Translations under genes and position numbers: made by a program
Source: a virus
Taxonomy: Duplodnaviria > Caudoviricetes
Length of the DNA stretch: 29,340 nt
Virus record (IMG/VR): IMGVR_UViG_3300017785_002243
Coordinates: 1-29,340 of that record
Reading direction: 5' to 3' (one strand)
Shown: positions 4,889 through 24,292 of the stretch, in pieces
Numbering within the stretch: the first letter of the stretch is position 1
Layout: the number at the start of each line of letters is the position of its first letter
The notes under the pieces: generated by a model
What the model saw: only the letters and a program-made list of their open reading frames with translations
The model's database searches: none
What the model was told of the DNA's origin: nothing

Positions 4889-5461
4889 ATGAAATGGGAA
4901 GAACGAATACTGGCGTATGAAAAAGCAACGGGTTTTCCACGCAGTATGTTTGTCGCAGCGGACGGCAGGGTTGTCGGTACGTGGATCATGGGGAACGACT
5001 ATCGAGTGAAGTCAACATACTACGGAGGCTACCCTGCAGGGTATTTGCGTAGAATCAAAGCGCTGTTCCCAGACAAGAAAAAGGTTCTGCACTTGTTCTC
5101 CGGCAAAGTAGATACGGCGTTGTTTCCGGGGGACACAGTGGATATCCTAGCCGCAAACAGCCCTACGTATGTAGACGACGCGCAAACCTTGACGAAGGTT
5201 CCGTTGCCCTCTTACGATTTGGTTATGGCTGACCCCCCGTATAGCGTGGAAGACTGCGAACACTACCAGACCACAATGATAAAACGTAACGTGGTGATGC
5301 GTAGTCTCGGGGAGCGCTGTAGCCCGGGGGCACATGTCGTGTGGCTGGATCAGGTGCTCCCCATGTATCGTAAAGACCAGTGGGTTATGGAAGCGGTGAT
5401 CGGTATGGTGAAAAGCACCAACCACCGGTTTCGCGTTATAACTATTTTTAGGAGGCGTTGA
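4889..5461 (+). CDS. orphan amino-methyltransferase (N6-adenine/N4-cytosine DNA MTase-like)
   Basis: Motif I-like VLHLFSG, DI/DA SAM-binding elements and catalytic motif IV DLVMADPPY; GAGGAGG RBS. Confidence 0.75.
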   Translation: MKWEERILAYEKATGFPRSMFVAADGRVVGTWIMGNDYRVKSTYYGGYPAGYLRRIKALFPDKKKVLHLFSGKVDTALFPGDTVDILAANSPTYVDDAQTLTKVPLPSYDLVMADPPYSVEDCEHYQTTMIKRNVVMRSLGERCSPGAHVVWLDQVLPMYRKDQWVMEAVIGMVKSTNHRFRVITIFRRR

Positions 5462-12379: not shown

Positions 12380-15220
12380 ATGCAAACACGAAGTGAATTC
12401 CTGCAGGCTGTTCTACCTGCAGAGGGGGTCTATGTAGCGGTTGCCATCGACGGGAAGCGGGTGTCACAGACGTTTCACGATACGGTAACCGATCTCGAGG
12501 CGCGGTGCGACACACTGATTAGCGAGGGGCAAAACACATTTTTTGCGGTAGCGACGTTCAATACCGTCGGCACGCGCACTACGGACAACATGAAGCTGAT
12601 CCGGTCCCTGTTCGTGGACTTGGATTGCGGCGAAGACGAGGAAGGCAGGAAGTACGCCACACAGGCTGAAGCGGTTGCTGCACTGCGGGAGTTCGTCAAG
12701 GACATGCGGCTACCCACACCGTGGGTCATCAACTCAGGCCGGGGCATCCACGCCTACTGGCCGTTCACCGAGGCAGTCAACCGGTTGCAGTGGAAGCCGG
12801 TGGCCGAGAAACTGAAGCAGCTGTGCGCCATCAAGGGGTTCAAAGCTGACCCTGCTGTCACGGCTGACGCCGTGCGGGTGCTGCGGGTGCCGGGGTCATT
12901 CAACGTCAAGGACAAAGACAATCCCCTGCCGGTGGAGATTCTGAAGGCTGGGGTAGCCACCCATTTCGATGATTTACGGCAGCTGCTGGGGGTGTCAGAG
13001 TTCGATGCGTCAGCCGCCAAGCGCCCGATGGATGAAGTCACCAAGAACCTGCTGGCGAACCGTCCGTCCCACTTCAAGGACATTCTGCAGAAGAGCGTGG
13101 CGGGGGAAGGCTGCAACCAGATCATGCACGCGGTGGGCAACCAAGCCACCATCCCGGAGCCGTTGTGGCGGGCCACGCTGTCTGTAGCGCAGCACTGCGC
13201 CGATCGGGACAAGGCCATCCATGTTGCGTCAAAACAACACCCGGGCTACGACCCGGGCGAGACCGAGCGCAAAGCCAGCGCGACCAAGGGGCCCTACACC
13301 TGCGCGTCGTTCCAGAAGATCGATCCCACATTGTGCGAAGGCTGTCCGCATCTTGGTAAGATCAGCTCCCCGATCACGCTGGGTATGGGGCGGGTGCTGG
13401 AGGCTACGCAGGAGGATCGCACGGTCGAGGTGGTGCTGCCGGAGTCCGAGGAGCCGGTGGTCTATGAGATACCTGCATACCCCTTCCCGTTCTTCAGGGG
13501 CAAGAATGGCGGCGTTTACGTCAGGGAGCAGGTGGAGGACAAGAAGACCGGGGCCACGCACGAAGAAGACACCCTGATCTACCCGCATGACTTCTATCTG
13601 GTGGCGCAGATTTCTGACCCACATGACGGCGCAACGGGGCTGTTTCGGGTTCACTTCCCGCAGGACGGGGTCAGGGAGTTCTGCGTGCCGCTGTCGGACA
13701 TGCTGGCGAAGGATCGATTCCGCGACTCTATCGCAACGGTGGGCATGTGCCCGCAAGGTCAACAACTGGACAAGCTTATGGCGTATTCAAACTACTGGGT
13801 AAACACGTATCAGAAGTCGAGTCAGTCCAAGCTGGGTCGCGTGCAGTTCGGCTGGGCGGACAACAACCAATGCTTCATTGTCGGAGACCGGGAGATTCGC
13901 GCCGACGAGGTCAGATACAGCCCACCCACCATCACCACGGTGCCGATCGCATCGTCATATCAAAAGTCGGGGACTCTCGAGGAGTGGCAGAAGATCGCCA
14001 ATTTCTACAACCAACCCGGCATGGAGCTGCAGCTGTTCACCCTGCTGGCGGGGTTCGCCTCACCCCTGATGCCCTTCACCAAGACCCAAGGTGGTGTCAT
14101 CAGCCTACACTCTGACAAGGGCGGCACCGGTAAAACGACCCTGCTGTGGATGATCAACAGCATCTTCGGCCACCCCAAGGACACCTGCCTGATCCTGCGG
14201 GACACGGTCAACGCTCGGCTGCACCGGGTGGGTGTGCTGAACAACATATCTGCGACCACGGACGAGATCACCAACGACATGCCGGAGAACCTGTCCGCCT
14301 TCGTCTACGACTCCCTGCAGGGCCGTGCCAAGAACCGGATGAAGTCATCGTCCAACGTGGAGCGCGTCAACAAGACCACATGGAACAGCATCAGCGTAGT
14401 GACCGGCAACGCGGTCATCAGCGACAAGCTGCGGCTGATCAAGGGCGAGCCAGATGGCGAGCTGCGCAGGCTTCTGGAGTTTGAGGTGTCTCTGGCTACG
14501 AAGATCAGCAAGGCTGAGTCGGACTCCATATTCATGCCCCTGTTCGACAACTATGGCACCGCTGGCGAGGTATATATCCAGCACCTGCTCTCCAAGACCG
14601 ACACGATCCACGACACATTCCGCAAGGTGCAGTTGAAGCTGGATACGGCGGCGGGGCTTCAGCAGCGGGAGCAGTACCAGTCGGCCACCTGTGCCGCCAT
14701 CCTCACGGCGGGTGTCTACGTCATGGAGTGCGGCGTTATGAACCTGACTTCCGCCGACATGAAACGTCTCTACCAGTGGGTAGTCAATTATCTGGTTGAG
14801 ATGCTGGCGAAGACCGCCAACGACACGGTGCCGCTGGATGAGGTGCTGGGCATGTTCTTGTCGAGCCATGTCAACGATATGCTGGTGATCAAGGGCAACC
14901 CCACGCTCGGCACCATGCTGGACGCACCCATACGGGAACCACGAGGCAGGCTGCTGATCCGCTACGAGCCGGACACCCAAGAGCTGTGCGTGAGCGCGGC
15001 CAAGTTCCGGGAGTTCTGTGCCCGCAGGCAGGTGTCGTACGATGCAGTCATGGCGTATTTCAAGCGGGAGGGCAAGTTCCGGGAGATCACTCGAAAGCGG
15101 CTGGGCAAAGGCACCCACATATCAGCCAACGAGCGGGTGGTTGTGTTTACCAACATTGATCAGGACGTTATAGGCGATGCAGACAAACGTGCAGGTGTTG
15201 GGGCTACCGGTAGTAATTGA
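12380..15220 (+). CDS. primase-helicase (AEP/RepB-like primase + PriCT-like + DUF927 + P-loop domain)
   Basis: AEP motifs FVDLDC, NSGRGIHAYW and RVLRVPG; EPLW and Cys cluster TC...C..CPH; GW (DUF927); P-loop GGTGKTT; DE.T. Confidence 0.85.
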   Translation: MQTRSEFLQAVLPAEGVYVAVAIDGKRVSQTFHDTVTDLEARCDTLISEGQNTFFAVATFNTVGTRTTDNMKLIRSLFVDLDCGEDEEGRKYATQAEAVAALREFVKDMRLPTPWVINSGRGIHAYWPFTEAVNRLQWKPVAEKLKQLCAIKGFKADPAVTADAVRVLRVPGSFNVKDKDNPLPVEILKAGVATHFDDLRQLLGVSEFDASAAKRPMDEVTKNLLANRPSHFKDILQKSVAGEGCNQIMHAVGNQATIPEPLWRATLSVAQHCADRDKAIHVASKQHPGYDPGETERKASATKGPYTCASFQKIDPTLCEGCPHLGKISSPITLGMGRVLEATQEDRTVEVVLPESEEPVVYEIPAYPFPFFRGKNGGVYVREQVEDKKTGATHEEDTLIYPHDFYLVAQISDPHDGATGLFRVHFPQDGVREFCVPLSDMLAKDRFRDSIATVGMCPQGQQLDKLMAYSNYWVNTYQKSSQSKLGRVQFGWADNNQCFIVGDREIRADEVRYSPPTITTVPIASSYQKSGTLEEWQKIANFYNQPGMELQLFTLLAGFASPLMPFTKTQGGVISLHSDKGGTGKTTLLWMINSIFGHPKDTCLILRDTVNARLHRVGVLNNISATTDEITNDMPENLSAFVYDSLQGRAKNRMKSSSNVERVNKTTWNSISVVTGNAVISDKLRLIKGEPDGELRRLLEFEVSLATKISKAESDSIFMPLFDNYGTAGEVYIQHLLSKTDTIHDTFRKVQLKLDTAAGLQQREQYQSATCAAILTAGVYVMECGVMNLTSADMKRLYQWVVNYLVEMLAKTANDTVPLDEVLGMFLSSHVNDMLVIKGNPTLGTMLDAPIREPRGRLLIRYEPDTQELCVSAAKFREFCARRQVSYDAVMAYFKREGKFREITRKRLGKGTHISANERVVVFTNIDQDVIGDADKRAGVGATGSN

Positions 15221-15392
15221 CTGGGCCAAGCTGCAGATCGGGGCGTCGTTCTTTGTCCCGATACCGCTCGCCATGACCCAGCATCCGCGTAAACAACTTC
15301 AGGCAGTTGCTGCCCAGCATGGGTATGACGTGCTGGTCGAGGAGGTCGTGGAGAAGGGGCTAACTGGATTGCGGGTTTGGCGTATTCGGTGA
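15177..15392 (+). CDS. hypothetical small protein (possible DNA-binding)
   Basis: IDW..L.IGASFFVP...GLRVWR motif, common after the primase in related phages. Confidence 0.65.
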   Translation: MQTNVQVLGLPVVIDWAKLQIGASFFVPIPLAMTQHPRKQLQAVAAQHGYDVLVEEVVEKGLTGLRVWRIR

Positions 15393-15405
15393 CCCGTGCT
15401 AGTAT
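15377..15405 (+). promoter_or_regulatory. putative sigma70 promoter with extended -10
   Basis: TTGGCG (15377-15382), 17-nt spacer, TAGTAT (15400-15405) preceded by TGc; predicted start near 15412. Confidence 0.5.
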
Positions 15406-15411
15406 CCGTCT

Positions 15412-15479
15412 GACGCTAGTTCCTCGCTAGTCGTCGCTTCTCCTCCCCTTCACCCCCGGCGCAATGCTGGGGGTTTTTT
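15412..15479 (+). ncRNA. candidate small RNA with anti-Shine-Dalgarno motifs
   Basis: 5' hairpin 15412-15435 (loop UCCUC), single-stranded GCUUCUCCUCCCCUUC and a terminator hairpin with U tract; contains no ORF. Confidence 0.45.
15452..15479 (+). terminator. Rho-independent terminator at convergence of early and late arms
   Basis: ACCCCCGGC-GCAAT-GCTGGGGGT followed by TTTTT; the U tract is on the + strand only. Confidence 0.85.
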
Positions 15480-18400
15480 ATAGGCCGGTGTTTTTCCGCA
15501 GTGTCGGCAGGTTCAGGGCGGAGAACAGCCGCATTTCGTATTGATCGATCTGGTCCAGTTTCTCTCGTTTCTCTGCGCTGTCAAGGTTGTTGTTTGCCTC
15601 GATCAATCTACGGGCTTGCCGCAGTTGCGAGAGCTGCTGCTCTACTTGGGTGAAGAACCCGGACTTGGCCAGCGCATACAGCTCCTTATTCTCCATCAAG
15701 CGCTGTTGAGCCTCTACCGGGTCACGCTCCATCAGGAACTTAACATCCTCCGCTACTTCGCGGGACCGCTGGCGAAGCTCGTAGTAGTCATCTTTCAGCC
15801 CGGACGGCGCACTGCCGGTTATGAACGTAGTGGCCTGCGGTACGTCTGCCCAGCGGCGATCCGCCCGCTCGATACCTGAAACTGTTTCGATAGCACGCCC
15901 ACCCGCATACATCGCGGTGCCGCCGAGCACTCCGAGATACCCGCGAATCAGATGCTCAACCTGCACTGGAGCCAGCGGGGTTACCGCAGACAACAGCTTC
16001 GACAGCTCTGACGTGCCGCTGGTAAACTGCAAATCCTTTGACCGCCCTTCTAGCCCCTTGCCGATTATGGGGTTGCCGCTGAAGAACGAGTAGTTAGCCG
16101 CGACTTCAACGCCGGGTTTTAGCAGCTGCGGCATGTAGCCCGGGGCGGATATGGCGTTGACTAGCCCGTCACGGAACACGCGGGCCAACTTGGTGGCATC
16201 CACTTCGTCTTTGGTGCCCAAGCGCATGATGTAGTTCCACGATTGCTCGGGGATGGTCTTGAACATCAGACCGATCGGGTCTTGCGGCGTCGGAATCTTG
16301 AGGTTGCCACCGATATCGGTGCCGGTCAGTTCTTTGATGGCATCACGCGAACCCGGGATCATAAACCCGGTCAGCTTCTCATGGTCTGGTAGCTTCTTGT
16401 AGTCCTCGTCATCCGACACCAGCATGGCGTAAATGGACCCTAGCGCCGCGATCTTCATACCAGTGGCCCAGAACTGCCGCATAGCAGTGGTCCGGTCTTT
16501 GCCGGAGATGCCTTCACGGAACATGCTGCGGTAGGTCACGTCCATACCCTGTAGGTAGGCGTTCATAAACGGGATAATCTGACGCAGCACGTTGATTGAA
16601 CCCGAGCGCCCCTGCCGTTGGAAGTTGATGACCTCGCTGGCTTTGTACAGCGCCAGCATCTTGTCGCCGGTCTCCTTCAGTGTCTGCTCGTAAATCGCCA
16701 TCCGTTGGGACGCATCCGAAGCACGAGTCATGGCGTCCAGAGCGCCCCGCACATGCCGAGCTGCTTTCTTAGCGCCTGAACCGCCTTCGTCCAGCGCGGC
16801 CTCGATCCTGCTGCGGTCGGAGCCGACCATGAAATCCGGACGGCCAATGATGCCGTACGCCGCGAGTTCCAGCGACGTACCCTTGTGCGCCAGTGCGTCC
16901 TTAAAGGACCCCAAAACCTTAGCACCCACCATGAACGGACTTTGCGCTCCGGATAGCGCAGTTGCACGGAACCCGTCCTGAAACAGCTGACTGATCACGA
17001 ACCCCGGCATTAACGTCGTGCCGGTCCGCAGCCAGTTCGCGGCGCGACCCAGAGCGGTAAACAGTGGGGTAGATACGGACTCCACCCCCAAGAAGGCGTG
17101 CCTGTCCAGCGGGTCTGCGACTTCAAAGAATGTCGGTTCTCCGTTGCGGTATGTCTTCACAAGGCGCTCTGCTGTGCCTTGATTCGCGTGCGTCAGGGCT
17201 TTGGCGTCAATCTTCAGCAGCCCGTCCATAGCCACATTCGCCGCATGATTTCGCACGATGGTGTTGACCAGCCAGAACGACAAGTTCTCCATGTTGCCAA
17301 GGATGTCGCCAATGGGCCGCTTGTTCACGTCGCCACCGATCAGCTCGGCTATCTTGCCGTTGTCCACTAACCCCTTGAAATACTTCTTGGTGGATTTCTT
17401 GGTCTCGTAGCCAAACTTGGCGTCGTCCAATATGCGATGCCACGGCACGTACTCCGGTGCTTTGACCCACTCGTCCACATCTTCCTGCGTGAACCGCCCC
17501 GTGGCTTTGCCGACTTGAAGCAACTGGTTCTTATACTGCTGGAACTTCTGAACACCGGCACGAATCTCGTCACCATACAGGCGCAGTACATCATCAGCGG
17601 CCTGTGTATCTTCAGCGGACAGCGCCATCGACTTGCGAATTTCAGGACTGATTTCCGGCGAACGCATACGCAGCACAGTCGCCCCGAGGTCGAACCACGC
17701 TTTGGCCGTGTCCATATCCACACCAGCCTTCTCGGCTATCTTATTAACCTCTTGGTGGACATCTGCCAGTGACACCCCACTGGCCACCCTGAACAGCCCG
17801 GTCTCCGGGTCCAGCGCAATCGAACCTTCCAAGATGGAGGACGTTGCCAAGTCCATTGACCGGGTAGCCATCAGCAGGTTGACGACTGATTTGAGGTCAT
17901 TCTTCTCTAGCAGCTTCTCTTCTACAGCAGCGCCGTTGAATATAACCGCGTTCCTATATTCTTTGATCTTGTTGACCCGGTATTTTTCATCAAACGCAAA
18001 CCTCCACGCGTGTGTGAAGAACCCTTGATCGCCTTCGCGCTGCTTCTCGGCGATGCGTCTCGTCGCTTGCGCGTCCATGGCTGCTGTGGGTTGTTGCGCG
18101 GAGAACGGCAGTGGCATAAGTTGGACGCCACCCATCTCGCTGAAATCGTGGGAGTGTAGTTCGCCAAACGCGGGTTTTATATTGACGTAATCCGCAGCCT
18201 CTTTTCGAGTCAGAAAAACTCCATCTTTTGTCGAAAAACCAGCTTCCCATTTGGACAAATCTGATTTCCAACCCCCCGGCAGTTTGTACCGGTCGTGTAT
18301 CGGACCTGTAACAACGACCTCACCGGACTCCTTGTGCCGAAAACTAGCCCCGATAATAGGGCTACGAACGGGTAAATCTTTTACCCCTTCCACGCGCGTC

Positions 18401-21400
18401 TCAGACGGCGCAGCCTCCAACAGCTGATCCAGCGTCTTCTCGACCTGCTTGGCCTTGCTCAGACCGAGGAAACCACGAATGGCATCAATGAACCGACCCC
18501 ACCAGCCCTTGGGTTGGCCACGCAGCACGTCTTGGAACTCTTGATTGCTGATTGCCTCTGCGGCAAATTCCTGCAGGTTGGTCGCGCCATACTGCCCTTT
18601 GATCTCCGGGGCCAGCGAGTCAAACAACGCTTGCAGCTTTTTCGTAAGAACATGGTTGGGGTTAGCCAGCACATGTGCGACTGCTGCGTGCATTGCCTCG
18701 TGCAACAAGGTGTGCTCGTGAAGCCCTTCCGGATCGATATAGATGGTGTCTGTGGTCGAGCTGTAGATACCCGCGTCACCCGTCGGTGTCTTGCGAACCA
18801 GCACCTTGGTGCCCTTGATGGCGGACAGAATTTTGCGAGCCGCTGTGCGTATTACCGGCGTGGAGCCGGTCTCCCCGAGCAGCTTCAAAGCGCCTTTAAG
18901 GTCGCCTTTATCCAGCAGTGAACGAACTTCTTTTGACAACCCGGAACCAATCGGGGTGTGGGATAGGCCGTATTGCGGCGGCGGGTTTGACATCATCCGG
19001 TCGTATTCCGCACGGAACGCGGCCCTACGGGCTTTTTTAATTGCGCGGAAAACTATGACTGCGCTTGTTGTGTACGCTGCGTCATATTGCTTATCCCGCA
19101 TCAGGCTCACGATCTCAGCGCGATCCTTTTCTGACACAGCCTCTCGAACCGGGAAAGGCTCCGCCGCGTACTCGGACGACCTACCTGCGCGTTTTTCTCG
19201 TTTGGCAATAGCTCGCTTTGCCGGATCACCGGCCTCAGCATCACTGATCAGCGTGTCAAGCCATAGAAGCGCGTCTTGCTCGGTTGTGTACGAACCGTCA
19301 GTGGGGGCTTTAAGGAACGGCTTCCTCGAATCCGCTGCTTTTTCTGCTTGCTTCACAGGGGACTTGGTGCCGAATACCTTCTCGGCGGCGTTGCGAATAA
19401 GCCCGAGTCTGGATTCCCACTCTGGGGTATCCCGCTTTGCGGCCAAAGCTTGATCAATACCGGCACCGGCTTTTGCCGCTTCGCGCCAATCAGCCTGCTT
19501 TGCCTCAGCTTCTTGCTCGGCTACGCGGGCTTCTTCGACAGCCTGAGCGGCCCTCTTTAATTCTGCATTCTCCGCACCGGCAGCTCTGGCTTGTTTTGCG
19601 GATGCAATTTCGCGTTCTGTTCTTAGTTGGTTTACGGCTTCGGTAGCCAAGGCCAACTCGTCCTTGGTTATGCTGGGGTCTTGCAACGCCTGCTTCGCCG
19701 CGTTTATCTGTGGCGCTACTTCGGCTTGGGCTTTCTTACCCTTCGGTTGTTTTTGAGTGGCGGTGTCCACCAGATATATCAGCGCCTGCCGATACTCCGT
19801 GCGATCCTTTGGGTTCCTTAATCTGGCCGCTGCGGTTTCTACTTCTTCAACGTCGCTTAGTGGACTCGGTTTTTGCTCTTCTCCAGCATTAACAGGACCA
19901 GCTGGTCCTTTGCCGCCAGCCACAACTGGAACTCCATCTCCAGCAGCTCCGGTTCTTCCGGCTGTCTGTCCCAGTACAGGCACTCCCATGCCTTCTCCAG
20001 CAGCTTCTGGTCGAATAGCATCTATCTTCTCCCGGGCTTGCGCGACGAATTGTTTTACCGCATCGTCATTGAACGGTTGTTTCGCAGAAGAGCGGTCGCC
20101 GTAGTCCTTGACCAGCGCTTCAAACTGAGCAATGTCTTCCGGCTTCGACATGTCCAGCGCCTGCAGTGCTTTGGCTACCTTGGATGTTCTTACAGCGGTC
20201 GGGTTAAACCCCAAACCCAGCAGCGTATCTCGCGTTATCTTTGTCGCCTCTGGTTTTGTTACTGCAGGCTCTACCGGTGCCGGTTCCGACGGCTCCTGCA
20301 GGTCCAGCTGCCCCTGCATCTTGGAGAGCTTCTGTTGCTCACGCTTGGTCGGCTGCTTCTCGATCGAGGAGATGCGCTTGTTTACGGCCTTCAGTTGCGC
20401 ATCGATAGCCTCAATATCCAGCCTCCGGGACACAGCCTCTTCCCGGGTAGGTGCGCGTTGGAACTCGCGCTCCATGATGCCTTTAACCCGCAGCAGCTCG
20501 TCGCGCTCCATGAGCGCAGAGGCCAGATCAACATCCGCACCCTGTGCTTCTTCGTCGGCAAACCGGTCGGCGGAATATCGCTTTCCTGATGGAGCCATAC
20601 CGGTAACAGGCGGCACACCCTCAGCAGGGAGAGGTTCAAACAACGGCTGTTGTGCCCCTGTCGGGATCGGTTGCGTGGCTACCGGCTGGGCTTGCTCCTG
20701 CGATTGTTCCGGTTGCTCGGGTACTGACTCTGCCGCAGTCGGCGTGGTAGGTTTGGCTGCAGCTGCTCGACGGCCAGCCACTGCATCCAGCAGGAACTGC
20801 ACAATCGCACCAGCACCCGCACCATATGCTGCGTTCTCACCCACACCCTCGACAAGTTCTTGGCTGGGCTTGTAGACCTGTTGGGTAATCAGGTTCTGCG
20901 CGACTGCCGACGCGGCTTCTTGAGCACCCTCCATACCGCCGGTAACGAGCGCCCGCTGGACATAGTCAAAGATGCCGCCCTTGATTTCTTTGGGCATGAC
21001 GCGGAATATCCACTCGATCGGTGCAAGCTCCGCAATGCCCGGGATCACACCCAGCTGCGTGGCGCTTGTAATCTGCTCCGGAGTAGCACCGGCAGTAACA
21101 GCGCGTTCTCGCGCCTCGCCCGCACCCATACCCGCAGCGGTAGCACCAGCAGCTGCCGTCCGCCCCGCACCTGCCGCGAGCCCAAGCCCACGAGCTGCCA
21201 AGCCGCCCGCGCCGCCGGGTATCAGCAGTGAACCCATTGAACCCACGGCCTCACCCAGCTTGGTCGGAATGGCCTCTTCATAGCCGAAAGCGGCCTTGGG
21301 CTTGAGGCGTTCAGCGAACCCCTTGATGCCTTCGCGGGCGGTCTTTTCAAACCCTTCCTGTGTGTCACCCGGCAGCAACGCTGCGGCACCCAGAGCGGCG

Positions 21401-21573
21401 CTTTCAAGGCCCCCGACCAACCCACGCGGGATAGCCTTCAGGGCTTCCTTCGCGTAACCGCCAACCGTTCTGTTTTCTTCGGCGTATTGGCGATACCGCT
21501 GCAGCAGCTCTTCTTGCGTGATGTCGTCAGGAACCCCGCGAACAACCACGCCATCCGGCATCCGAACATCCAT
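15478..21573 (-). CDS. giant internal virion / DNA ejection protein, polyvalent type (zincin-like metallopeptidase + LPD38-like C-terminus)
   Basis: 2031 aa. N-terminal MPDG..V..VPD motif and Gly/Ala-rich hydrophobic helices; HTLLHEAMH...QEFAAEA zincin motif (18688-18702); C-terminal PF.NA..QG, LKP.VE..AN..FF.G.PI and P..VEHLIRGY.G typical of LPD38-type proteins. Confidence 0.75.
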   Translation of the reverse strand: MDVRMPDGVVVRGVPDDITQEELLQRYRQYAEENRTVGGYAKEALKAIPRGLVGGLESAALGAAALLPGDTQEGFEKTAREGIKGFAERLKPKAAFGYEEAIPTKLGEAVGSMGSLLIPGGAGGLAARGLGLAAGAGRTAAAGATAAGMGAGEARERAVTAGATPEQITSATQLGVIPGIAELAPIEWIFRVMPKEIKGGIFDYVQRALVTGGMEGAQEAASAVAQNLITQQVYKPSQELVEGVGENAAYGAGAGAIVQFLLDAVAGRRAAAAKPTTPTAAESVPEQPEQSQEQAQPVATQPIPTGAQQPLFEPLPAEGVPPVTGMAPSGKRYSADRFADEEAQGADVDLASALMERDELLRVKGIMEREFQRAPTREEAVSRRLDIEAIDAQLKAVNKRISSIEKQPTKREQQKLSKMQGQLDLQEPSEPAPVEPAVTKPEATKITRDTLLGLGFNPTAVRTSKVAKALQALDMSKPEDIAQFEALVKDYGDRSSAKQPFNDDAVKQFVAQAREKIDAIRPEAAGEGMGVPVLGQTAGRTGAAGDGVPVVAGGKGPAGPVNAGEEQKPSPLSDVEEVETAAARLRNPKDRTEYRQALIYLVDTATQKQPKGKKAQAEVAPQINAAKQALQDPSITKDELALATEAVNQLRTEREIASAKQARAAGAENAELKRAAQAVEEARVAEQEAEAKQADWREAAKAGAGIDQALAAKRDTPEWESRLGLIRNAAEKVFGTKSPVKQAEKAADSRKPFLKAPTDGSYTTEQDALLWLDTLISDAEAGDPAKRAIAKREKRAGRSSEYAAEPFPVREAVSEKDRAEIVSLMRDKQYDAAYTTSAVIVFRAIKKARRAAFRAEYDRMMSNPPPQYGLSHTPIGSGLSKEVRSLLDKGDLKGALKLLGETGSTPVIRTAARKILSAIKGTKVLVRKTPTGDAGIYSSTTDTIYIDPEGLHEHTLLHEAMHAAVAHVLANPNHVLTKKLQALFDSLAPEIKGQYGATNLQEFAAEAISNQEFQDVLRGQPKGWWGRFIDAIRGFLGLSKAKQVEKTLDQLLEAAPSETRVEGVKDLPVRSPIIGASFRHKESGEVVVTGPIHDRYKLPGGWKSDLSKWEAGFSTKDGVFLTRKEAADYVNIKPAFGELHSHDFSEMGGVQLMPLPFSAQQPTAAMDAQATRRIAEKQREGDQGFFTHAWRFAFDEKYRVNKIKEYRNAVIFNGAAVEEKLLEKNDLKSVVNLLMATRSMDLATSSILEGSIALDPETGLFRVASGVSLADVHQEVNKIAEKAGVDMDTAKAWFDLGATVLRMRSPEISPEIRKSMALSAEDTQAADDVLRLYGDEIRAGVQKFQQYKNQLLQVGKATGRFTQEDVDEWVKAPEYVPWHRILDDAKFGYETKKSTKKYFKGLVDNGKIAELIGGDVNKRPIGDILGNMENLSFWLVNTIVRNHAANVAMDGLLKIDAKALTHANQGTAERLVKTYRNGEPTFFEVADPLDRHAFLGVESVSTPLFTALGRAANWLRTGTTLMPGFVISQLFQDGFRATALSGAQSPFMVGAKVLGSFKDALAHKGTSLELAAYGIIGRPDFMVGSDRSRIEAALDEGGSGAKKAARHVRGALDAMTRASDASQRMAIYEQTLKETGDKMLALYKASEVINFQRQGRSGSINVLRQIIPFMNAYLQGMDVTYRSMFREGISGKDRTTAMRQFWATGMKIAALGSIYAMLVSDDEDYKKLPDHEKLTGFMIPGSRDAIKELTGTDIGGNLKIPTPQDPIGLMFKTIPEQSWNYIMRLGTKDEVDATKLARVFRDGLVNAISAPGYMPQLLKPGVEVAANYSFFSGNPIIGKGLEGRSKDLQFTSGTSELSKLLSAVTPLAPVQVEHLIRGYLGVLGGTAMYAGGRAIETVSGIERADRRWADVPQATTFITGSAPSGLKDDYYELRQRSREVAEDVKFLMERDPVEAQQRLMENKELYALAKSGFFTQVEQQLSQLRQARRLIEANNNLDSAEKREKLDQIDQYEMRLFSALNLPTLRKNTGL
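19857..20021 (-). CDS. overprinted 54-aa gene nested in the +1 frame of the giant virion protein gene
   Basis: GGGAG RBS 7 nt before ATG 20021; MLFDQKLLEKAWECLYWDRQPEEPELLEMEFQLWLAAKDQLVLLMLEKSKNRVH*; codons strongly CTG/GAG/CAG/AAG. Confidence 0.65.
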   Translation of the reverse strand: MLFDQKLLEKAWECLYWDRQPEEPELLEMEFQLWLAAKDQLVLLMLEKSKNRVH

Positions 21574-21583
21574 AGTCGCTACC

Positions 21584-24292
21584 TTACTGTTTTTGAGATG
21601 ACGGCAATTTGCTGAAATCTACCACGCCTTTTCCACCACTCGCCCCCTTCATCATATCAGCCATCTCAAACGGCATTGGGTTTGTGATTTTTGTGGTGGC
21701 TTCCGTGTACATCTGCAGCGCCCTTTTTGCGTTTTCAATTCGCGCCGGGTCCTTGCTGCGAACAGCATTGACGTAGTCAACCTTCAGTTGATCAGCCTTG
21801 TCTGTGTAGGCTTTGGACAGGATTCCAATTTTTTGCCGCTCGACATCCAGACCGGCACGTTTAATCGACAGCTCTTCCAATTTGGCCTTGTACATGGCGT
21901 CGGCTTGCTGCGCCTGACGTGTGATGTCTTCGACACGGGTGCGGGCTTTGTCGGCAGCGTCATACTTCTGCATACCTTCCAGACGGCTTGCCTTGCGCTC
22001 TTCGCGCTCGATTTGCTTGCGGAGGTCGTCAGCCTTGCGGAAGTCTTTGTTAACCGCAGCGATCTCTTTGGTCGTCAGGCCAAGACCCTTAGCAAAGTTT
22101 GTCAGTGCGTAGGGGGACTGTCCAGCAGCAGCTTCAAATCCGCCCATAGCCACCGCCAACCAGCGGTCAGCGTCACGGTCTTTTATCGCCTGCTGTCCTT
22201 GAGCCTTAAGTTCCTCAAGGCGATCCTTCAACTCACTGGGGAACCGCTTCTCCATCTCAGCTTCTTTGCGAGCAAACGCTGCCTCGGGCGACTCACCGGT
22301 ATAAAGCAGCGATGTCTCTGGCTTGATGGATTGACCTGCGGTTGCAGTCGGTCGCGCAGCGGGGATGGCGGTTCCTGATCCTCCGGTTGCGGGCCCGCCT
22401 GACGGTTGACCACGCCCTTCTTGTTTAGCCTGCGCTTCGTACTGCGACTGCGGTGCCGCTGCCTCTGCGGTTTTTGCCAGCGGTTGTCCGGACCGCAATT
22501 TACGGAGGTCCTCGGATGTAGAGCCAAACGGATTCAGCATCCCGAGAGCAGCACGGGCTCGTGCGACAGTATCAGTGACAACACCCGGCTCACCGGACAT
22601 ACCATAGTATTGTTTTATCGTGTCTGTCGGGGTTTGATACAAGTCATAAGCAGTAGCTCCCAAATCCGCCGCTGCAACCGGCGCTACAAACTTGCCGCCC
22701 ACACGCGCTGCACCACGAGCAAGGCCACCTAGTCCTTCCAGACTGAGACTCGGGTTTAGCCGTGACGGTTGCACGGCGGCTCGCGCACGGGAAAACAATC
22801 CCGCTTCTTCTGCTGCTCCGGAACCGATACCCGAAGTTGTTGCTCGCGCTGCCTGCGCCGCCTTCTCTGCCTGCGCTGCCCTTATACGAGCTGCGCGTTC
22901 TTTGGGGGATTCTTCTGCATACGGGCTACGTTGGCGACGGCTTTCTTCGAGGTCTTCCGGAAGTATGTCCTGTGCGGATGGAGGGGTTCCTCCGGTGTTA
23001 AACGCAATAATCCCACCGCTTGCGGCCATCACGGGGTCTGCCATCACACCTGCATCCATACCGGGGATACCTGCGTTGGCCTGTTGAACCCCGTCCAGCT
23101 CGCGCAGCTGCTCCTCGTACATGCTCGGCTCCTGCGCTACCTGCCGCCCATTCTCCAGAGCCTGTTGGTTCCTCGCACCAGCGGTGAGCTGCAGCTGCTT
23201 CACAAACTTCTCATCCCGAAGCGCGAGCATCACACCCAGCGGGGGCAACTCGCGGGGGTTCACACCCGACAACAGCTGCTTCTTGACATCGGTCACAATA
23301 GACGGAGTCGCACCCTGCGTAGCCTCTCGACCACCCGTGATCCCACCATCGGCATACCCCGGCACCTCGCCACCCTCTTTGGCACCGAACGCTTTTGACA
23401 GACCCAACGCGCCAAGCCCCAGCCCGCCAATCTGAGAAGCCATCGACGGCGCGGCCTGATACTGATACATCGTCTGTTGCGGTGCGACAACCGAGCCACG
23501 AAGCAACGAGCTCAAGAACTGCAGCTGCTCCTGCGGGTAGTACTTCTGCTGCATGAATTCTTCGTATCGCTTGTCCAGCCCTTGCTGGTTCTGCGCTTGT
23601 TGGATAGCACCGGCCTGTTGCTGCGCCGTGGCTGCAGCTGCTTGTTGACCGAACGCCGTCTGGCCCAGCTGACCGAACTGCTGACCCATCTGACCCGCGA
23701 GGCCGAGACCCTGCAGCCCAAGCTGTGAGCCGAACTGTAGATTCTTGTTGGCTTGGTCGAACGCCTGTTGCGTGCCCTGCGCCTGAATGCCACCAAGCTG
23801 GTTCTGCAGATTACGCTGGGCTTCTGACTCCACGATCGCCTGACGAGAACCGCCGAACGCACCAGCACGAGTAGCCGCTGCTTGCTGGCCGGGAAGCTGC
23901 CGACCATAGTCCTGAATGGCCTGCTGTTTCTGCCAGTCCACCACGTTCTGCATGTAGGGCGACATGTAGGACTGCATCGCCCCGGGGGAGGTAGCCTGCT
24001 GGGTATACTGCTGACCAGCCCCCAGACCACCCAGACCAGCCGCACCGGTCAACCCGGCAGCGGGCTGCAGCAACGGCGACGTGCCGAGATTCTGCACACC
24101 TTGGAACCCCTGCTCCTGCAGAGGGCTGAAGTCCGCTACACGCTGACCTTGATACGGCTGATACGCGGTGTTCGAGGCAGTCGTGCCTCGAGTCATTATG
24201 TCCTCAAAATAGGGACGTGCGTATTCCGGAAGGTTGGACTGATTTACTGTTTGTGATGCGGGCTGTGGTGCGCCGCCGCCGCCTTTTCCCAA
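21584..24292 (-). CDS. internal virion / DNA transfer (pilot-like) protein
   Basis: TTG start after AGGAG; MGKGGGG...LPEYA.PY, Y.GQRVA.FSPLQ, YMSPY.Q.V and AGAFGGSR motifs; Q/G/A-rich with coiled coils. Confidence 0.7.
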   Translation of the reverse strand: MGKGGGGAPQPASQTVNQSNLPEYARPYFEDIMTRGTTASNTAYQPYQGQRVADFSPLQEQGFQGVQNLGTSPLLQPAAGLTGAAGLGGLGAGQQYTQQATSPGAMQSYMSPYMQNVVDWQKQQAIQDYGRQLPGQQAAATRAGAFGGSRQAIVESEAQRNLQNQLGGIQAQGTQQAFDQANKNLQFGSQLGLQGLGLAGQMGQQFGQLGQTAFGQQAAAATAQQQAGAIQQAQNQQGLDKRYEEFMQQKYYPQEQLQFLSSLLRGSVVAPQQTMYQYQAAPSMASQIGGLGLGALGLSKAFGAKEGGEVPGYADGGITGGREATQGATPSIVTDVKKQLLSGVNPRELPPLGVMLALRDEKFVKQLQLTAGARNQQALENGRQVAQEPSMYEEQLRELDGVQQANAGIPGMDAGVMADPVMAASGGIIAFNTGGTPPSAQDILPEDLEESRRQRSPYAEESPKERAARIRAAQAEKAAQAARATTSGIGSGAAEEAGLFSRARAAVQPSRLNPSLSLEGLGGLARGAARVGGKFVAPVAAADLGATAYDLYQTPTDTIKQYYGMSGEPGVVTDTVARARAALGMLNPFGSTSEDLRKLRSGQPLAKTAEAAAPQSQYEAQAKQEGRGQPSGGPATGGSGTAIPAARPTATAGQSIKPETSLLYTGESPEAAFARKEAEMEKRFPSELKDRLEELKAQGQQAIKDRDADRWLAVAMGGFEAAAGQSPYALTNFAKGLGLTTKEIAAVNKDFRKADDLRKQIEREERKASRLEGMQKYDAADKARTRVEDITRQAQQADAMYKAKLEELSIKRAGLDVERQKIGILSKAYTDKADQLKVDYVNAVRSKDPARIENAKRALQMYTEATTKITNPMPFEMADMMKGASGGKGVVDFSKLPSSQKQ

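Follow-up and report, generated by a model that had tools for sequence, protein, structure and literature searches.

Layout of the locus

The window, i.e., the whole stretch of 29,340 nucleotides that was analysed, is a linear virus record with a completeness estimate of 44%. It encodes a DNA polymerase of family A and a DUF927 protein and contains a virion block. A single gene of the virion block encodes a 2031-aa polyvalent ejection-type protein (15478..21573, minus strand) and adjoins genes matching phrog_4287 and phrog_3287. The phrog_4287 (DNA ejection protein) match is the upstream gene of 902 aa (21584..24292, minus strand). Three features were located in the giant protein, all encoded on the minus strand: an N-terminal G/A-rich region (residues 30-285; 20719..21486) that a profile finds in some giants carrying the nested gene described below and in two that do not, the HExxH motif of a zincin-like metallopeptidase region (18688..18702), and an LPD38 domain (residues 1722-1911; 15841..16410; E 7.4e-25). 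In other words, LPD38 and an HExxH region lie within one very large protein, as in phage polyvalent proteins. Polyvalent proteins with MPTase and LPD38 domains are known (PMC5512222; bioRxiv 10.64898/2026.04.10.717836), and the giant gene is likewise built and stands beside an ejection gene. According to the same two sources, the LPD38-bearing gp47 of phi24B is a virion protein and is proposed to be ejected. The main text of PMC5512222 does not contain the word "overlap".

The closest cultured phages, judged by a tail-region protein, are DSL-LC04, MinM2, HTVC023P, and CRP-901 at ~30-35% identity. Assignment of a bacterial host from the labels of metagenome-assembled genomes (MAGs) was rejected because the labels contradict each other. 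Elsewhere in the window, the replication block (plus strand) and the virion block (minus strand) converge at 15220-15478, where the sign of the GC skew flips, and a 190-aa ORF at 4889-5461 (plus strand) contains a DPPY motif, which we take to suggest an amino-methyltransferase.

The first-pass annotation had proposed that a hidden ORF with its own ribosome-binding site lies inside the giant gene, and the start, the stop, and the Shine-Dalgarno (SD) sequence were all verified. The nested gene of 54 codons (19857..20021, minus strand) runs from an ATG at 20021 to a TAA ending at 19857 and is offset by +1 from the frame of 15478-21573. An in-frame TAG immediately precedes the ATG. The SD sequence, GGAG (20029..20032, minus strand), is located 7 nt before the ATG, and its register is the same in four relatives (L106-L109).

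The codon counts that had been reported for the nested gene are exact (Leu CTG 9/12, Glu GAG 6/8, Gln CAG 4/4, Lys AAG 4/5), and they are only modestly higher than the genome background of 51, 67, 72, and 70% for CTG, GAG, CAG, and AAG. The depression of codon usage in the giant frame is the stronger signal. The GC3 of the giant frame is 0.22 across the nested span as compared to 0.64 for the whole gene, and only 2 of 1976 windows are equally low. Across the same span the codon adaptation index (CAI) is 0.73 in the nested frame and 0.42 in the giant frame, against a mean of 0.66 for the giant gene; a giant-frame CAI this low occurs in 4 of 1976 windows. The description of the overlying giant frame as a G/A/P/V-rich linker with atypical codons was also borne out, since giant codons 518-572 encode a linker that is 51% G/A/P/V, as compared to 31% overall, and is free of W, C, and H.

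Could the nested frame be open without being translated independently? It might be the +1 frameshift tail of the giant protein or a by-product of the composition of the linker. In 20,000 synonymous recodings of the giant span the +1 frame was open in 27%, which favors this explanation, and an open +1 frame by itself is therefore weak evidence for a gene. However, an open +1 frame with an ATG and a stop arose in only 2.3% of the recodings, and one with at least 12 Leu in 0.015%. The decisive evidence for the nested gene is its composition together with its conservation in relatives. Taken together, the nested ORF is almost certainly a real, conserved gene.

A family of nested genes

A single-sequence protein search with the window peptide returned no match. 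A peptide search led to one viral locus, at which the ORF was nested within a 2312-aa giant almost unrelated to that of the window, and the nearest homologue of the window's giant contains, at the corresponding place, a 54-aa ORF built in the same way. Relatives were collected by using the upstream 902-aa gene as an anchor, which yielded 80 loci, and an iterative six-frame HMM search was run over 85 sources. It produced 45 matches at E<=1.2e-9, all on the strand of the giant; the next match had an E of 0.2. All but one (44/45) were located in the +1 frame of an ORF of at least 1400 codons; the giant of the remaining one was cut by the end of the locus. These matches represent 40 distinct peptides. 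Among the other 40 sources, 20 had a giant without the nested gene and 20 were too short to judge.

Searches that began with the peptide found 157 further loci, and 156 of them lay within a long ORF, in its +1 frame, while one lay at a contig edge. The 157 loci included no free-standing copy, and each locus had a single copy. The nested start fell between codons 274 and 768 of the giant at these loci, i.e., in its N-terminal part, and the nested gene was upstream of HExxH wherever the giant had one. In total there were 203 matches with 154 distinct complete peptides from viral, metagenomic, and MAG contigs.

The family profile matched 482 of 1.84 billion protein-cluster representatives, and 150 of the 482 clusters were examined as sequences. 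Ten clusters that were looked up were unnamed or hypothetical, except that one 59-aa protein carried the automatic label "predicted amidophosphoribosyltransferase". Gene callers report each locus as one gene, so that this family, with at least 482 clusters, largely goes unseen and unnamed. Literature searches, whose scope was journals outside subscription, found no description of it. Three family members queried against cultured phages gave no significant match, and no member was present in the stretches retrieved from four cultured phages that are distant relatives. A search for cellular homologues gave no match in 401 genomes from the family of one MAG, a set that contained no positive control, and a match in one of five MAGs, namely the genome holding the phage-like locus L101. 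This locus (L101:13410-13583) and L099:4016-4198 are family members nested in giants on contigs that were binned in bacterial MAGs under conflicting labels; the two are probably co-binned phage contigs. The nested family is thus real, large, and uncatalogued, and its architecture is of an already known kind, consisting of embedded +1 genes and polyvalent giants.

The best-known embedded gene of this type is the lysis gene Rz1 (PMC6139136), a small gene that in lambda is likewise contained entirely within a larger gene of the same strand, in its +1 frame. In contrast to Rz1, the nested gene described here encodes neither a lipobox nor a transmembrane (TM) segment and lies outside a lysis cassette. 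Furthermore, the larger gene is that of a 2031-aa virion protein, and its frame is relaxed over the overlap.

Start signals and selection

Start signals of the relatives argue for independent translation. An SD sequence of at least 5 nt with an ATG or GTG at proper spacing was present in 29/40 homologues but in only 9/444 control +1 frames from these giants. At a threshold of 4 nt, which is the score of the window's own SD, the counts were 34/40 and 42/444, and in the peptide-first set 84/118 loci had an SD of at least 5 nt with ATG or GTG. The absence of a clear SD at four loci (L001, L012, L031, and L041) is what a frame lacking independent translation would predict. The enrichment of start signals speaks against that explanation, and a +1 stop no more than two codons from the chosen start in 8/40 members, the window included, speaks against a frameshift tail. 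Likewise, no coupled restart of the giant frame was seen after the nested stop, with an ATG nearby in 4/40. Homologous giants retain the nested start, SD, and stop, which is the opposite of the loss that the first-pass annotation had named as evidence against the gene.

More direct evidence comes from the pattern of substitutions. In six independent close pairs the nested frame had a pN/pS of 0.25 and the giant frame one of 2.06, and the most conserved position was the second position of the nested codons. Selection on the nested frame, which had been proposed from codon usage, is thus upheld by a frame-specific test. A by-product of linker composition or a frameshift tail is, on this evidence, a most improbable explanation. 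Comparison of the window with L106-L109 gave the same pattern (for L106, pN/pS of 0.13/0.44 in the nested and 0.23/0.13 in the giant frame). Conservation in this comparison starts at the SD and stops at the stop codon, whereas the upstream flank of the giant is 33-47% identical; for L106 the peptide is 74% identical and the flanking giant 35-39%. The apparent positive selection in the giant frame (pN/pS about 2) is therefore an artefact of the nested gene, and what is read as a "disordered linker" of a giant virion protein can be the trace of a second gene, with consequences for domain parsing. The term "overprinted" holds in the sense of a nested +1 gene, but the nested frame is not established as the younger of the two. 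A younger frame would be expected to fit the codon usage of the genome worse than the ancestral one. Although codon usage in the window favors the nested frame, it was higher in the nested frame in only 73/152 family members (p 0.95).

When is the nested gene expressed? No sigma-70 promoter was found in 19300-21800. In four freshwater metatranscriptome assemblies the virion block was represented by patchy pieces, which in one assembly cover the nested span, a coverage that carries no strand, level, or frame. Judging by the position of the gene, expression would occur late and from the mRNA of the giant. Translation of the nested gene probably takes place late in infection and starts from the gene's own ribosome-binding site.

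The predicted protein

The earlier reading of the product as an acidic, Trp/Leu-rich helical mini-protein agrees with structure prediction and with the family alignment. AlphaFold, run with 40 sequences, predicted helices at residues 5-17, 24-27, and 31-51 (pLDDT 85). The predicted helix 1 (residues 5-17; 19971..20009, minus strand) contains the near-invariant A11 and L15, and the predicted helix 2 (residues 31-51; 19869..19931, minus strand) contains the invariant W34 and the near-invariant L41, L44, and E47. Nine columns are 94-100% conserved (L3, A11, L15, L26, L29, W34, L41, L44, and E47), and the window departs from the family at two of them (F3 and M29). Net charge ranges from -9 to +3 across members, most of which are acidic. 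The nested product is thus predicted to be a soluble, mostly acidic helical hairpin.

This prediction bears on a role at the membrane, in superinfection exclusion or lysis. The precedent of Rz1 favors such a role, but none of the 154 members has a lipobox, no TM segment was found in 40 members (maximum 19-residue hydropathy 1.33), and the giant gene encodes an LPD38 protein and not an i-spanin. A membrane factor is accordingly very unlikely.

The C-terminal tail (19860..19883, minus strand) follows the pattern E-K-x-x-S/N-x-[LVI]-[H/Q/N] and has a fixed length of seven residues after E47. The last residue of the 154 members is H in 98, Q in 44, and N in 12, and the penultimate residue is L, V, or I in 152. 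An [LIV][HQN] ending was found in only 13/808 crudely filtered control ORFs. Ser occupies position -4 in 81/154 members, and the window ends in N-R-V-H. While most of the conserved positions of the family are Leu, Ala, and Trp in the predicted helices, the conserved polar residues are concentrated in the tail, and for this reason the tail is taken as the putative docking end. A subfamily (L046, L057, L068, L077, L079, and L084) has ~8 additional residues in the interhelical loop; the tail is unaltered.

Searches for the identity of the protein gave little. Pfam, PHROGs, and NCBIfam gave no assignment for 40 members, with weak, scattered matches (best E 0.0074). The best E in a sequence search of the PDB was 1, Foldseek found nothing at E<=0.001 in the PDB and viral structures, and the ESM Atlas gave no usable match. 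A wide fold search with VIA returned a generic helical match as the best (Z 5.5). Two of the 40 members matched Pfam NblA (PF04485) with a best E of 0.0076, which is marginal for 40 queries, and the window protein did not match; NblA was not among the 50 VIA matches listed, and no fold search gave a match that discriminates for or against the NblA fold.

Carriage among giant proteins

The giants are highly mosaic. For example, the giant of L002 is 88% identical to that of the window in its C-terminal half and 52% in its N-terminal part, and the giant of L001 has little in common with it beyond the metallopeptidase region. Of the 40 carrier giants, 12 had the window-type N-terminal region by profile, 24 the metallopeptidase region, and 5 LPD38; 9 lacked HExxH. 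No single domain was detectable by profiles, whose sensitivity is limited, in all carriers. Conversely, L010 and L053 contain the window-type N-terminal region and have no nested gene. On a tree of the anchor (93 columns, hence short; 61 rows), at least nine gains or losses of the nested gene are forced.

The nested product had been proposed to be a dedicated chaperone, inhibitor, or immunity partner of the giant protein. In the form of a co-translated chaperone or inhibitor that assists folding or packaging of the giant ejection protein or its neighbors, this proposal draws on the constant setting of the gene, which is always nested, in single copy, in the N-terminal part of the giant and upstream of any HExxH, and on the many conserved hydrophobic positions of the peptide. 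However, the 20 related giants without the gene, L010 and L053 among them, weaken it, as does the lack of a giant region detectably common to the carriers. Furthermore, the peptide is conserved far better than any flank. When the nested protein was modelled in complex with the N-terminal and metallopeptidase regions of the giant, the score was 0.04, which is evidence neither way. A chaperone of this kind appears doubtful. Patchy carriage and the lack of a domain common to carriers fit an accessory role better than an essential or domain-specific one, and from these comparisons the nested gene looks accessory and not like a dedicated partner of the giant.

A possible decoy for Lon protease

What might the tail dock onto? 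Our tentative answer, reached by analogy with published termini, is the host Lon protease. The nested gene would be translated from its own ribosome-binding site on the mRNA of the giant to give a small, soluble helical hairpin late in infection, presumably in the cytoplasm. Its fixed C-terminal tail would then dock onto Lon and act as a decoy, and newly made virion proteins would be spared. Both the choice of Lon as the target and its inhibition, as opposed to activation, belong to this conjecture. Tested Lon degrons end in VTLH, FTVH, PIIH, and LSLH (PMC11986505), and LarA binds and activates Lon via a V-H terminus (PMC10665427). SulA, Smg, and LarA (PMC11986505; PMC10665427) likewise have, after a helix, a short tail with [LVI]-H at its end, although no sequence similarity of the family to these proteins was found. 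A precedent for inhibition is Dap2 of phage PaoP5, which binds and inhibits Lon and thereby protects a packaging protein and, more generally, proteins of the assembly stage (PMC13083879). No homology to Dap2 was detected in library searches, which are not a direct comparison. The binding of Dap2 to Lon depends on E97/E99, and dap1 and dap2 are a tandem pair with minimal overlap (PMC13083879).

Several properties of the tail weigh against a Lon decoy. In a published Lon reporter screen, half-life by last residue was 152 min for H, 283 for V, 319 for P, 401 for N, and 402 for Q (PMC11986505). Q and N are thus mediocre, and 56/154 family members end in them, in contrast to SulA, Smg, and LarA. 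V and P, which come next after H in that screen, are never the last residue in the family. Ser at -4 is favored by the family and called disfavored for Lon degrons (PMC11986505). The strict motif x-[LI]-[LIV]-H was found in 3/40 and 6/150 members, and the N-R-V-H of the window does not fit it; several tested Lon degrons also deviate from it (PMC11986505). It should be noted that the published preferences may not be those of Lon in the host of this phage. Finally, a generic Lon decoy would have no need of a link to the giant, yet the lack of free-standing copies suggests one.

Instead of Lon, the nested product might act on some other host protein, such as one involved in division, transcription, or defence, and inhibit or modulate it as a late accessory factor. 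In that case the tail would serve as a docking motif for that protein or, as in SulA, be a mere turnover tag. Patchy carriage and the soluble, mostly acidic character of the product fit this explanation, and the interchange of H, Q, and N would indicate a pocket that recognizes polar side chains without being specific for His. However, the family, fold, and Atlas results suggest no such target. Host-takeover genes are usually early, and the nested gene sits in the virion block. A different host target is a tentative explanation and almost as likely as the Lon decoy.

A third explanation is that the product activates or redirects a protease, either as a LarA-like activator or as an NblA-like adaptor that brings host proteins to be degraded. 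LarA activates Lon by the same kind of terminus, and the two marginal NblA matches and the cyanophage nblA genes, which are likewise small, proteolysis-related, and overlap their neighbors (PMC12695635), point in this direction. That overlap is only partial (up to 110 nt; PMC12695635), in contrast to the full nesting seen here. The NblA score comes from two members only, and the Q and N endings count against an activator as they do against a decoy. An activator or adaptor is unlikely.

If the Lon decoy were correct, a large lineage of podoviruses from aquatic habitats would keep an anti-proteolysis gene permanently embedded in its giant ejection gene, so that every mRNA of the giant would also yield a tail-docking protease decoy. 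The nested gene, as opposed to the giant, would dictate the sequence of the linker, and it would persist while the giant modules around it are swapped. This larger picture is speculative and, as a whole, rather improbable. The fixed [LVI]-[H/Q/N] tail nevertheless offers a cheap and direct way to probe by experiment what may be a new interaction of a phage with a protease or with its host.

Other nested frames

Giants without the family contain other +1 ORFs. Two ORFs of 50 codons with SD and ATG are located at L044:15147-15299 and L044:16779-16931 (also in L045 and L049). L049 contains a homologue of the second (E 6e-13), in which SD and length are conserved. In the cultured phage MinM2 (L085; OQ594354.1), an unannotated +1 ORF of 69 codons with a strong SD, AGGAGG, begins at L085:13099 within an 8.4-kb giant gene; it has the same layout and an unrelated sequence.
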